Shown piece after piece: positions 5,463 to 9,708 of a stretch of DNA of 11,758 bases; the first letter of the stretch is position 1; each line of letters begins with the position of its first letter. The notes below the pieces were generated by a model, which was given only the letters and a program-made list of their open reading frames with translations, made no database searches and had not been told where the DNA came from. The DNA lies in the IMG/VR virus record IMGVR_UViG_2690316233_000014; one strand, 5' to 3'. The translations under genes were made by a program, and so were the position numbers. Source of the DNA: a virus. Lineage: Duplodnaviria > Heunggongvirae > Uroviricota > Caudoviricetes.

Positions 5463-5848
5463 GGCTGGTATCCCGTCACGCGCTGCCACTCCTGCGAGAA
5501 GAGGGCGGAAAGGCGGTTAAATTCAGCGGTGTATTCACTCAGCGAGGCACACCCGCCAGCAGTGCGATGCGCCAGCATTGCTGCAAATACGGAGGCCGGG
5601 GAGTCGTAATACGCCAGCAGTGATTCGCCGTGCGGTGTCAGGCAGTGTAACGCCAGTCCGTGTGGTGTGAAATCCACGCGGTAGCAGTCGTCTACTGTGA
5701 AATAAAGGGTGTCTGCATTCTCCGGTTTTGTGGTGCGTGCTCTGTTGTCACGACCACGGATGTAGAGATCAAATAACCCCTGAAGAACGGGAGCCAGACG
5801 GGTGTCCTGTGTGCGCACCCATCTTGTGAAGTCATGAGCGTCAATCAT
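5459..5848 (-). CDS. hypothetical protein, 129 aa, translationally coupled to Rep
   Basis: ATG at 5848-5846, TGA at 5459-5461 overlapping the Rep ATG. Family not recognised. Confidence 0.6.
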   Translation of the reverse strand: MIDAHDFTRWVRTQDTRLAPVLQGLFDLYIRGRDNRARTTKPENADTLYFTVDDCYRVDFTPHGLALHCLTPHGESLLAYYDSPASVFAAMLAHRTAGGCASLSEYTAEFNRLSALFSQEWQRVTGYQP

Positions 5849-5920
5849 GCTGCAATTCTCTTTACTACAGATGTGCGAAGGCCTCCCGCCGCAAGGTGCA
5901 GGAAAGGCCCGGAACAGGAA

Positions 5921-6151
5921 TTAATGGAGTTTGTTTTGCTGCTGGATGAGCTGTTGAAGCTCGTGCAGATCATCCGCCAGATAGCTGAAAACAGAGGCGG
6001 AATAAATGTTTGATAGTGCGTGGCTGCGCTCATGCAGCATATTGATGTGCATGATTTGCGCGACGCGTGATGCGCGGGAAAGTCTGCGGTTGATTTCAGT
6101 CTGGATGTGACGACGCTCCGCGATAGCGCGGTGCTGTTTGCGGTCTGCCAT
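5921..6151 (-). CDS. small basic helical protein, 76 aa
   Basis: ATG at 6151-6149 with AGAGG 8 nt upstream, TAA at 5921-5923. Translation MADRKQHRAIAERRHIQTEINRRLSR... is protein-like; preferred over the overlapping Ser/Arg-rich 205-aa track ORF. Confidence 0.55.
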   Translation of the reverse strand: MADRKQHRAIAERRHIQTEINRRLSRASRVAQIMHINMLHERSHALSNIYSASVFSYLADDLHELQQLIQQQNKLH

Positions 6152-6194
6152 GGTGTGGCCTCTTTGCTCGGTGATAGAAATAACTCACCATCCA

Positions 6195-6386
6195 GAGTTG
6201 AGAATCTCGGGGTGGCGAGACGTACAGGGTTCTCAACACCGGAGAGCAAAGAATCCGGCCCGACCGAAGTCGGCCCCGTACGCCCCGCCATAATTCTGAC
6301 GCGAAAAAGACGTGGCAATACAGTACGCACAAAAAAACCGCTTGCGCGGTTATGCGCTTTGCTCTGTATCGGGTTGAGAATCCCGG
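6195..6386 (-). ncRNA. candidate cis-regulatory or small-RNA leader with three related boxes
   Basis: On the + strand, box A GAGTTGAGAATCTCGG (6195-6210) and box C GGGTTGAGAATCCCGG (6371-6386) are 14/16 identical. Box B AGGGTTCTCAACACCGG (6226-6242) is complementary to both over 10-12 bp. A GGCCGAC-UUCG-GUCGGCC hairpin (6257-6276, - strand RNA) and a terminator lie between them. No ORF with a plausible RBS. Confidence 0.4.
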
Positions 6387-6455
6387 CACCCGTTTTATGA
6401 GGTGCAGCGGAAATGTAACCTGACCGATTGAGGCATGGCAAGCGGTTTTTTTGTG
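6328..6455. repeat. perfect 18-bp inverted repeat CACAAAAAAACCGCTTGC / GCAAGCGGTTTTTTTGTG flanking a 92-bp segment
   Basis: Left arm 6328-6345 and right arm 6438-6455 are exact reverse complements. The left arm is half of the - strand terminator; the right arm with CCGATTG...CAAGCGG plus a T7 run resembles a weaker + strand terminator. Confidence 0.55.
6330..6352 (-). terminator. intrinsic terminator or attenuator inside the leader
   Basis: On the - strand: AACCGC-GCAA-GCGGTT followed by seven U residues (GNRA-type tetraloop). Located upstream of the 76-aa, 129-aa and Rep genes. Confidence 0.45.
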
Positions 6456-6473
6456 TGTGCATGTTCTGGTTTC

Positions 6474-7259: not shown

Positions 7260-7676
7260 CTATGCGTTAAATACGGCACGTTGCGCGTCATCAATGAATA
7301 CAGCTTGAGATCGTTCTATCAGGCGGAGATTTGTCAGAAGCTCTGACTCTTTTGTGTGGTAAGGCGTTATCAGGTATTTGCCGTGCAGTTCGGCAATAAT
7401 GGTGTATTGCGTCATTATTGCCGAACCAAGAATGTAAATGCGGCGTCCAATGCTGGACGGATTCATGGCTGCAACTGTTGACTGTGTTTTAAGAGTGTCG
7501 ATTTCTTTGCTCTGTTCCTCAATAATTTTGGCTGCTTCAGAGGGGGCTATTGCGATGGTCAGTGCGTAAAGCGCTGCCATATGTTGATTATCTTTCTGGG
7601 CTGCCCTGGACAGCTTGTCTTGCTCTGCTGACACTATTTTTAATGTATTGATAATATTTTTTTCTCTTGCGTTCAT
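7260..7676 (-). CDS. hypothetical protein, 138 aa
   Basis: ATG at 7676-7674 with GGAG 8 nt upstream, preceded by about 100 nt of non-coding sequence containing repeats. Confidence 0.6.
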   Translation of the reverse strand: MNAREKNIINTLKIVSAEQDKLSRAAQKDNQHMAALYALTIAIAPSEAAKIIEEQSKEIDTLKTQSTVAAMNPSSIGRRIYILGSAIMTQYTIIAELHGKYLITPYHTKESELLTNLRLIERSQAVFIDDAQRAVFNA

Positions 7677-7725
7677 TTTATATCTCCGTTATTTACGTGT
7701 GCGAATACCTCCGCGAATGCGGATA

Positions 7726-7754
7726 GTTTTCAGGTTTTCAGGTTTTCAGGTTTA
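7726..7754. repeat. tandem octamer GTTTTCAG, about 3.6 copies
   Basis: Copies at 7726-7733, 7734-7741 and 7742-7749 plus a partial copy. Sits in the gap between the 37-aa ORF stop and the 138-aa start; the palindrome TCCGCGAATGCGGA (7709-7722) is adjacent. Confidence 0.6.
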
Positions 7755-7776
7755 ATCTGGTGTTTTGTTTAAGCTG

Positions 7777-7890
7777 TTATTTGTCAGTGAAAAAGCGTTC
7801 AATCTTTTTTACTGAATGAATAATTCGCATAATCCCAATGGCGCAGGCCACCGAAATAATCAGAACAAGCCATGAGATAAATATACTCAT
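7777..7890 (-). CDS. small membrane peptide, 37 aa, absent from the ORF track
   Basis: ATG at 7890-7888 overlaps the TGA of the upstream 80-aa ORF (ATGA); TAA at 7777-7779. Hand translation MSIFISWLVLIISVACAIGIMRIIHSVKKIERFFTDK: one transmembrane helix and a basic C-tail. Confidence 0.5.
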   Translation of the reverse strand: MSIFISWLVLIISVACAIGIMRIIHSVKKIERFFTDK

Positions 7891-8129
7891 GCGATATTCC
7901 CCAGCTTATACGGTTCAATGTGTTCCCCGCATTCTGCGGCACAGATCAGCTCGGAAAGTTCGTTCAGTGCATCCAGATCATCAGCGTAAAAAGCAACGTC
8001 ATACAAACTCCGGATTGCCCTGGTCAATGAATCACGGGCTGCATGTTCAGCATGAGCGCCTGATGCACTTAAGCGAAAATAAAATCGTTCAAGTGCTTTG
8101 TTAATGAGAGTTTTATATTCTTTGCCCAT
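7887..8129 (-). CDS. hypothetical protein, 80 aa
   Basis: ATG at 8129-8127, TGA at 7887-7889; fits the - strand operon and is coupled to the downstream small ORF. Preferred over the antisense + strand ORF 7838..8104. Confidence 0.55.
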   Translation of the reverse strand: MGKEYKTLINKALERFYFRLSASGAHAEHAARDSLTRAIRSLYDVAFYADDLDALNELSELICAAECGEHIEPYKLGNIA

Positions 8130-9021: not shown

Positions 9022-9228
9022 TCAGGAAGATTTGTTTTGTTCTTTCTGGGTTAGCTCTAGGCCGCGAAGGAAGATCATGCGCGCCATGTTAGAGGATGAG
9101 CGTTGTTCTTTAGCTGCCATTTCATCAATGACGGCTCGCTCCTCGAGGGACAGCCGAAGTGCCAGTCTTGGACCTGTGGCGGTGTTACGCGGAATGCGTG
9201 ATCTGGTATCGTGAAGAACTTGTTTCAT
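9022..9228 (-). CDS. ribbon-helix-helix (Arc/CopG-type) DNA-binding protein, 68 aa
   Basis: RLALRLSLEERAVIDEMAAKEQRSSSNMARMIFLRGLE fits the beta-strand, helix, helix RHH pattern. It is the first gene of the leftward operon; no Shine-Dalgarno before the ATG at 9228, so the mRNA may be leaderless. Confidence 0.6.
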   Translation of the reverse strand: MKQVLHDTRSRIPRNTATGPRLALRLSLEERAVIDEMAAKEQRSSSNMARMIFLRGLELTQKEQNKSS

Positions 9229-9303
9229 AGTGGTATATTGTGATCATCTAATAGCTCGTGAAATCATTTTGGTATCAAAAAAGATACCTGTCAAGGTTTT
9301 TGT
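9229..9303. promoter_or_regulatory. divergent promoter and operator region between the RHH operon and the XRE repressor
   Basis: 75-bp AT-rich gap with an inverted repeat GGTATC-AAAAAA-GATACC (9271-9288), a further TGGTAT half-site at 9231-9236 and a TGATCA palindrome at 9241-9246. Candidate -35/-10 hexamers on both strands are not resolved. Confidence 0.5.
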
Positions 9304-9708
9304 ATGAAAAATGATATTGGTCAGCGGTTGCGTGAGGAAAGGGAAAGATTGGGACTTAGTCAAGTTGCCATGAGCGACATTGGTGGAGTCAAAAAGCTAA
9401 CTCAGCTTAGATATGAGAAAGGAGATAGCTTTCCTGATGCTGCGTATTTGGCAGCGCTGTCTCGTTTTGGCCTTGATGTTCAGTATGTTGTGTTGGGAAT
9501 TCACTCACCTGAAACTTATAACGATGATGAGCAGGAGTTGATTACTCGCTTTCGAGCAGCTTCGTTAGATGTGAAAAACGCGGTGATTGGGGCTTTAAAA
9601 GGTGCGATCAGTGAAAAGGAAACTCAGCCATCAGGACGTGAGTTAAATATTTCTGGTGGTAATAACCGTATCGCTGGTCGTGACTATAACGAAACTAAGG
9701 GTAGGTGA
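9304..9708 (+). CDS. XRE-family HTH repressor (CI/C-like), 134 aa
   Basis: ATG at 9304 with AAGG upstream. N-terminus IGQRLREERERLGLSQVAMSDIGGV is a classic Cro/CI-type HTH. Ends with three tandem in-frame stops TGA TAG TAG (9706-9714). Confidence 0.8.
   Translation: MKNDIGQRLREERERLGLSQVAMSDIGGVKKLTQLRYEKGDSFPDAAYLAALSRFGLDVQYVVLGIHSPETYNDDEQELITRFRAASLDVKNAVIGALKGAISEKETQPSGRELNISGGNNRIAGRDYNETKGR

Follow-up and report, generated by a model that had tools for sequence, protein, structure and literature searches.

The minus-strand open reading frame of 37 codons at positions 7890–7777 of the window, that is, of the whole 11,758-nucleotide stretch of viral DNA analysed here, is, we are confident, a real protein-coding gene under purifying selection. 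Its product is hydrophobic and helical; the gene overlaps the end of the DUF4754 gene, is strictly linked to it and lies in the early operon of a prophage. The sequence is already catalogued as a member of a narrow orphan family and is an uncharacterised phage micro-protein of an ordinary kind. As things stand, no new element has emerged: the existing annotation is confirmed, purifying selection and strict pairing with DUF4754 can be added to it, and the strict, deeply conserved linkage with DUF4754 is the sole modestly new point. The best overall reading, which we consider to have an even chance of being right, is that the peptide is a membrane-embedded partner of DUF4754 in an accessory early module at the inner membrane.

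The 37-codon gene and its conservation

The first-pass annotation had described an open reading frame whose ATG overlaps the stop of the preceding gene and for which an upstream in-frame stop precludes a longer form. These elements are all present, as listed below together with the parts of the product and the upstream partner.

7777..7890, minus strand: 37-codon open reading frame with its TAA stop; P88 gp07 / WP_000021655.1 family, annotated in relatives, under purifying selection in its own frame only
7828..7884, minus strand: codons 3–21, transmembrane helix IFISWLVLIISVACAIGIM (mean Kyte–Doolittle hydropathy 2.68, conservation table, AlphaFold2 helix)
7780..7827, minus strand: codons 22–37, juxtamembrane amphipathic net-basic tail RIIHSVKKIERFFTDK, predicted to be cytoplasmic (charge, conservation, codon constraint)
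7887..7890, minus strand: ATGA, the start of the small open reading frame over the DUF4754 stop, kept in 122/123 loci
7897..7902, minus strand: Shine–Dalgarno-like GGGGAA within the final DUF4754 codons (sequence)
7906..7908, minus strand: in-frame TAA excluding a longer N-terminal form (sequence)
7887..8129, minus strand: DUF4754 gene, 80 aa, helical (Pfam PF15946, E = 8.7e-54; AlphaFold2 pLDDT 88)

The ATG (7890–7888) overlaps the TGA (7889–7887) that ends the DUF4754 gene (8129–7887), and this arrangement is consistent with translational coupling, as had been proposed. A G-rich, Shine–Dalgarno-like GGGG is located at 7902–7899, 8 nt 5′ of the ATG. The in-frame TAA (7908–7906) lies six codons 5′ of the ATG, and the intervening codons (GCT GGG GAA TAT CGC) include no start that would permit a longer form. 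The product, MSIFISWLVLIISVACAIGIMRIIHSVKKIERFFTDK, is divided into a strongly hydrophobic segment and a charged tail. Only one other of the 74 ATG-started open reading frames of at least 30 aa in the window reaches a hydropathy of at least 2.5. The tail (residues 22–37) contains five K/R against two D/E residues and has a hydrophobic moment of 0.72, and AlphaFold2, with the single sequence as input, models residues 2–35 as one continuous helix with a pLDDT of 89.9. The hydropathy, the net-basic tail and the modelled helix thus bear out the earlier description of a single-pass membrane peptide with a basic tail, and a membrane location is likely.

To follow the frame in homologous loci, a check that the first-pass annotation had itself put forward, we gathered 124 related loci from RefSeq, phage records, IMG/VR and assemblies. 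The small frame passed this check, being intact in 123 of the 124 loci, where it encodes peptides of 37 aa (n = 110), 41 aa (n = 7) or 45 aa (n = 6); the sole broken copy (L004) is from a poorly assembled predicted prophage. Among the 45 distinct alleles of 37 codons, variable sites are distributed 14/5/20 over the first, second and third codon positions (chi-square p = 0.012). The pN/pS ratio is 0.26 in frame compared with 1.33 and 1.12 in the shifted frames; the value for the DUF4754 gene is 0.20. Constraint extends over the transmembrane codons 2–24 (0.27) and the tail codons 25–33 (0.19) and is relaxed in codons 34–37 (0.56). In pairwise comparisons down to 62% nucleotide identity, pN/pS of the small open reading frame ranges from 0.14 to 0.49.

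S6, W7, L10 and G19 in the helix are invariant across 39 distinct variants, as are I24, I30 and F34 in the tail, while the last two to four residues vary. Small or polar residues recur in the helix at i, i+4, i+7 and i+11 (S6, L10, S13 and A17). A test for a conserved face gave p = 0.03 for the tail and was not significant for the transmembrane helix (p = 0.26). The constraint on both the transmembrane segment and tail codons 25–33 suggests a specific interaction of the peptide, as opposed to passive anchoring.

Length variation is concentrated at the C-terminus. The 45-aa forms (loci L042, L043, L068, L083, L084 and L086) arise from deletion of one nucleotide in a T5 run (codons 32–34; window positions 7789–7797), which replaces only the last four codons. 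As this deletion is found in three sequence backgrounds, it is either recurrent, through slippage, or a homopolymer sequencing error. An analogous shift, in the A6 run of codons 27–29, is seen in a database variant (P0076). The 41-aa variants end in KRRK or KRHK, so that positive charge is kept on the C-side.

The most informative comparison is provided by three divergent lineages (L122, L124 and L125), in which DUF4754 shares only 34–40% identity with the copy in the window and the upstream 92-aa gene is missing. In all three, a 41-aa homologue of the peptide still follows DUF4754 with the same ATGA and a better Shine–Dalgarno sequence (AGGAGG). The peptide homologues retain 53–64% amino acid identity at 62–69% nucleotide identity, with pairwise pN/pS of 0.37–0.48. 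In the divergent lineages the Shine–Dalgarno-like GGGGAA is replaced by AGGAGG or GAGAGGG, the element being kept or strengthened. The pair thus persists at this depth of DUF4754 divergence and despite loss of the 92-aa gene; moreover, it is kept across two immunity/integrase backgrounds, the yecA type and the pdxB type.

A scan of genome contigs returned just two loci, one of which is a probable contaminant. This is L005 (NZ_JBQPOM010000071.1), labelled Vagococcus sp. WN89Y, a Firmicute, whose DUF4754 protein is 99% identical to that of the window; the locus is probably enterobacterial DNA contaminating that assembly.

Database records, the upstream partner and the prophage setting

The peptide had been described as unannotated, which is contradicted by several public records. 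RefSeq holds the identical sequence as a ‘hypothetical protein’ (WP_000021655.1), present in the best-matching genome and in O157:H7; gp07 of phage P88 (YP_009113050.1, ‘membrane protein’) is 94.6% identical to the peptide; the record of phage vB_EcoM-569R5 has the small open reading frame as a ‘putative membrane protein’; and a protein look-up gave an exact match to the UniRef entry A0A0C2F1Q7, ‘Prophage membrane protein’. In the assembly index, ~12,950 blocks carry a gene call with exactly this 37-aa sequence. Annotation is patchy, the gene being missed in NC_049344, in NC_049341 and in the assembly behind L125. Full-length identity, together with a site after DUF4754 with the ATGA in a Peduoviridae early operon, places the window peptide in the P88 gp07 / WP_000021655.1 family. 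These entries and A0A0C2F1Q7 share the same place after DUF4754 and the same 4-nt overlap, and these records, which are computational annotations, show no difference of substance from the window peptide.

The family is narrow. When 1.84 billion cluster representatives were searched exhaustively with HMMER, nine hits were obtained, all of them variants or fragments of the same peptide, and scans of the peptide against Pfam, PHROG, NCBIfam and PADLOC, also at E ≤ 10, gave chance-level matches only; in the Pfam scan at E ≤ 10 the single match was PET117 (E = 0.19, chance level). A literature search using the peptide sequence, the accession, P88 and P2-like small membrane proteins found no paper on the peptide, nor did the search find one on DUF4754 or DUF4761, and, with the CP-933T papers included, it found no expression or proteomic evidence for the peptide.

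For the upstream partner, a Foldseek comparison of the AlphaFold2 model of DUF4754 with the PDB returned generic helical bundles only and nothing at E < 1. Many of the ‘long’ DUF4754 proteins of 103–128 aa among P0002–P0052 are frameshifted read-throughs into the region of the small open reading frame and, as these long forms are mostly from single Logan/ENA contigs, they are probably assembly errors and not natural fusions. We also considered a start codon hidden in a conserved hairpin as a coupling device. In the start region CAUGAG can pair with CUCAUG, but this candidate was rejected because the stability of the hairpin is not above that of shuffled sequences (z = −1.3) and the hairpin is not kept in divergent loci.

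The window is part of a P88-like prophage of the P2 family (Peduoviridae, genus Xuanwuvirus) that adjoins yecA/tyrP in E. coli. Of 5,426 complete E. coli genomes, 1,366, O157:H7 included, match a 1.3-kb query spanning the open reading frame, so that about a quarter of them contain this prophage region. The active phages P88 and Citrobacter phiSM, which carry the small gene (PMC6456863), are matched by the same query. On the plus strand are an HTH repressor-like gene (9304–9708), two accessory genes and an integrase gene running from 10757 to the window end. Facing the repressor gene, on the minus strand at 9266..9294, a consensus scan located a candidate early promoter (TTGACA-17-CAAAAT) that would drive the operon holding the small open reading frame; the number of such sites in the scan is not above that in shuffled sequences, and the position matches that of P2 Pe and 186 pR. 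The minus-strand operon reads, in order:

9228–9022, minus strand: Arc-like RHH open reading frame
9005–8802, minus strand: Cox-like gene
8780–8430, minus strand: DUF4761 gene
8419–8141, minus strand: 92-aa gene
8129–7887, minus strand: DUF4754 gene
7890–7777, minus strand: 37-aa open reading frame
7776–7677, minus strand: 100-nt gap
7676–7260, minus strand: 138-aa gene
7236–7033, minus strand: 67-aa gene
7036–6770, minus strand: MarR-type wHTH gene
6773–6474, minus strand: Ead/Ea22-like gene
6405–6331, minus strand: isrK RNA
6295–6208, minus strand: C4 RNA
6151–5921, minus strand: derepression gene
5848–5459, minus strand: 129-aa gene
5489–2622, minus strand: replication endonuclease gene gpA

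The early-operon location given by the first-pass annotation is therefore upheld, the gene lying in the Cox-to-gpA interval of the early lytic operon of the prophage. It is the final gene of the Cox-proximal block (RHH, Cox-like, DUF4761, 92-aa, DUF4754 and 37-aa genes).

Two gene calls elsewhere in the operon differ between pipelines. The 68-aa operon-strand open reading frame at 9022–9228 (minus) has a full-length match to PHROG 3431, ‘Arc-like repressor’ (E = 1e-28), and at the same place RefSeq and other pipelines call a hypothetical protein of 45 aa on the other strand (9077–9214, plus); the RHH gene, and not the 45-aa call, is probably the real one. Further downstream, Rfam identifies a C4 antisense RNA at 6208–6295 (minus, 78.5 bits) and isrK at 6331–6405 (minus, 63.1 bits). 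Both are situated inside a mechanically called 205-aa open reading frame (5845–6462, minus) and upstream of a 76-aa ‘Derepression’ (PF25738) open reading frame (5921–6151, minus). Pipelines call either the 205-aa or the 76-aa frame at this locus, and the 205-aa call is probably spurious. The C4/isrK/Derepression cassette resembles the RNA-controlled antirepressor units of the P1/P4 type.

Possible roles of the peptide

As a partner of DUF4754, the peptide would have a two-residue periplasmic N-terminus, a transmembrane helix at approximately residues 3–24 and a cytoplasmic, amphipathic, net-basic helix at residues 25–35. An N-out/C-in topology is predicted by the positive-inside rule, because the N-terminus is uncharged, R22, K28, K29 and R32 come after the helix and the 41-aa forms add KRRK or KRHK. 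Ribosomes terminating on DUF4754 would probably translate the peptide by way of the ATGA overlap, and both proteins would then be made together. The peptide may serve to anchor or target the small, soluble, helical DUF4754 protein to the inner membrane or to a membrane protein, and the pair could fulfil an accessory, host-modulating role soon after induction or infection; on this reading the peptide would not be a free-standing pore-forming toxin. The strict pairing with DUF4754 fits a two-protein unit better than it fits such a toxin. We put the chance of the partnership itself at close to even or a little below. The linkage of adjacent genes may reflect co-inheritance alone, and the lack of a significant conserved face on the helix, the tolerance of the last four residues to frameshifts and a DUF4754 fold that offers no functional clue all speak against a partner role.

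It is possible to be more specific, although the extension is tentative and we think it somewhat unlikely. DUF4754 and the peptide might constitute a previously unrecognised two-component early module of P88-like phages, in which a co-translated micro-protein tethers a soluble helical protein to the inner membrane. Such a module would be a functional counterpart of 186 Fil/Dhr directed to the membrane, and would inhibit one particular process there, such as division, a protease or a transporter of the host. The fil and dhr genes of phage 186 and orf78 and B of P2 occupy the same operon slot, from the Cox/Apl switch gene to the first internal terminator, and are likewise small and early; the 186 record credits Fil with blocking cell division and Dhr with depressing host replication. 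By analogy, the slot provides a positional argument for a host-takeover role of the small open reading frame. In contrast, neither 186 Fil/Dhr nor P2 Orf78/B has sequence similarity to the peptide, and their products do not look transmembrane since they lack a long hydrophobic stretch like residues 3–21. Homology of the peptide to P2 Orf78 or 186 Fil/Dhr was accordingly rejected on sequence. Provided that the peptide is made, it can be counted among the many uncharacterised micro-proteins of phages; the function of the pair would account for a conserved component of the early programme in P88-like phages and might lead to a small inhibitor of some membrane function of the host.

The same features could be read without a role for DUF4754, which would then be irrelevant or co-regulated. 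The peptide would be a small transmembrane modulator that acts by helix–helix packing on a host membrane protein such as the divisome, the FtsH protease or a transporter or sensor kinase. Known proteins of this kind act on the divisome (Caulobacter SidA and SPO1 Gp56), on FtsH (MgtR and lambda CIII) and on a transporter or sensor kinase (AcrZ and MgrB). SidA, of 29 aa, and Gp56 are small single-pass division inhibitors, Gp56 being the product of an early phage host-takeover gene. The peptide is like SidA and Gp56 in being a tiny single-pass membrane protein, and has no homology to either of them or to the MgtR, CIII, AcrZ or MgrB families. The spacing of small and polar residues in the helix, the invariant G19 and the conserved juxtamembrane tail would suit helix packing, and the timing would fit early host takeover. 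Nevertheless, the conserved-face test on the helix was not significant and the strict coupling to DUF4754 would be left unexplained, and we regard such a modulator as unlikely.

The first-pass annotation had likened the peptide to small membrane toxins and to Kil or division-inhibitor peptides. Type I toxins (Hok/Gef, TisB, Ldr, Ibs and ShoB) are proteins of 20–50 aa with one hydrophobic helix and a charged end that reside in the inner membrane, and the peptide shares the length, the single helix, the charged end and, by prediction, the inner-membrane location with the toxins of this type in E. coli. This general architecture holds, and the genes for host shutoff, fil and dhr, take this operon slot in phage 186. 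The family assignment does not follow: no toxin (Hok/Ldr/TisB), Kil, DicB or holin model matched at E ≤ 10, and Rfam detects no antisense family over 7677–7890, the only Rfam hits being C4 and isrK, 1.4 kb away. Unlike the type I toxins, the gene has no known cis-antisense RNA family and does not stand alone, but overlaps DUF4754 inside a phage operon. Homology to lambda Kil, Rac KilR, DicB or 186 Fil found no support in Pfam or PHROG, translated Fil and Dhr are visibly unrelated to the peptide, and none of lambda Kil, DicB and 186 Fil is known as a transmembrane peptide. A free-standing membrane toxin or ‘kil’ would be a peptide that, alone, depolarises the inner membrane or arrests growth like Hok, TisB or Ldr. 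Against this, the gene belongs to a constitutive early operon, from which it is co-translated, and is not tightly silenced, the identical peptide is intact in thousands of lysogens and defective prophages, and early collapse of the proton-motive force would be expected to hurt phage replication. We regard a toxin, too, as unlikely. A holin or antiholin was rejected, as the gene is in the early operon between Cox and gpA and not in a lysis cassette, with no holin family match.

Many phage exclusion proteins are small inner-membrane proteins, and the gene varies and recombines within a mosaic accessory block. These properties would accord with a membrane factor for superinfection exclusion or anti-defence, whose early synthesis would keep other phages from entering or counteract a membrane-associated defence of the host. 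We consider this role improbable, given that the gene sits in the lytic early operon and not in the lysogenic-conversion loci of the P2 family (P2 old and tin) and that no match to PADLOC or any other family was obtained.

Finally, the absence of any protein function, with the open reading frame a by-product of mRNA structure, of ribosome unloading before the regulatory gap or of chance, is very improbable: the frame is indeed very short, its start region can pair and its C-terminal residues tolerate frameshifts, but substitutions are concentrated at third codon positions, pN/pS is low in its own frame only, the start hairpin is neither conserved nor more stable than shuffles, and amino acid identity is retained in the divergent lineages while nucleotide identity drops.

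The gap downstream of the gene

The Cox-proximal block ends in the 100-nt gap that follows the small open reading frame, in which we identified a hairpin from pairing and covariation:

7710..7723, minus strand: hairpin TCCGC-N4-GCGGA, at the end of the Cox-proximal block

In 64 distinct gap sequences, 99.7% of the hairpin cells are paired, and conservation of the hairpin exceeds that of the genes on either side. Its loop is free to vary, a change from C-G to U-A in 14 sequences provides one covarying pair, and three wobble pairs are valid solely on the operon strand. Since no U-tract follows the hairpin on the operon strand, it is not a canonical intrinsic terminator, in contrast to the terminator found at this slot in 186 and P2. 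It is preceded on the operon strand by an A/C-rich, G-poor stretch, and may act as a site of processing, as a stabiliser or within a Rho-dependent terminator.

Two further elements were seen in or next to the gap. An 8-nt tandem repeat, CCTGAAAA (minus strand), is present in three copies at 7727–7750, within the A/C-rich stretch; exactly two tandem copies occur in four related loci, and the repeat is degenerate in most others. On the plus strand, a promoter-like site at 7628–7655 is followed by the hairpin at 7710–7723 with a T-rich tail, and, judged by these sequence signals, the site could give rise to an antisense RNA of ~65 nt that would cover the ribosome-binding site of the 138-aa gene. 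Counts of such sites are not above those in shuffled sequences, and the wobble pairs argue against folding of the plus strand.

Many of the matches in E. coli prophages end at ~7696, just past the small open reading frame and its gap. Beyond this point the downstream gene differs, being either the 138-aa gene or directly the 67-aa gene. The loss of homology indicates that the DUF4754–peptide pair closes a mosaic block, with ~7696 marking, as judged from these alignments, a recombination boundary of the mosaic early region.
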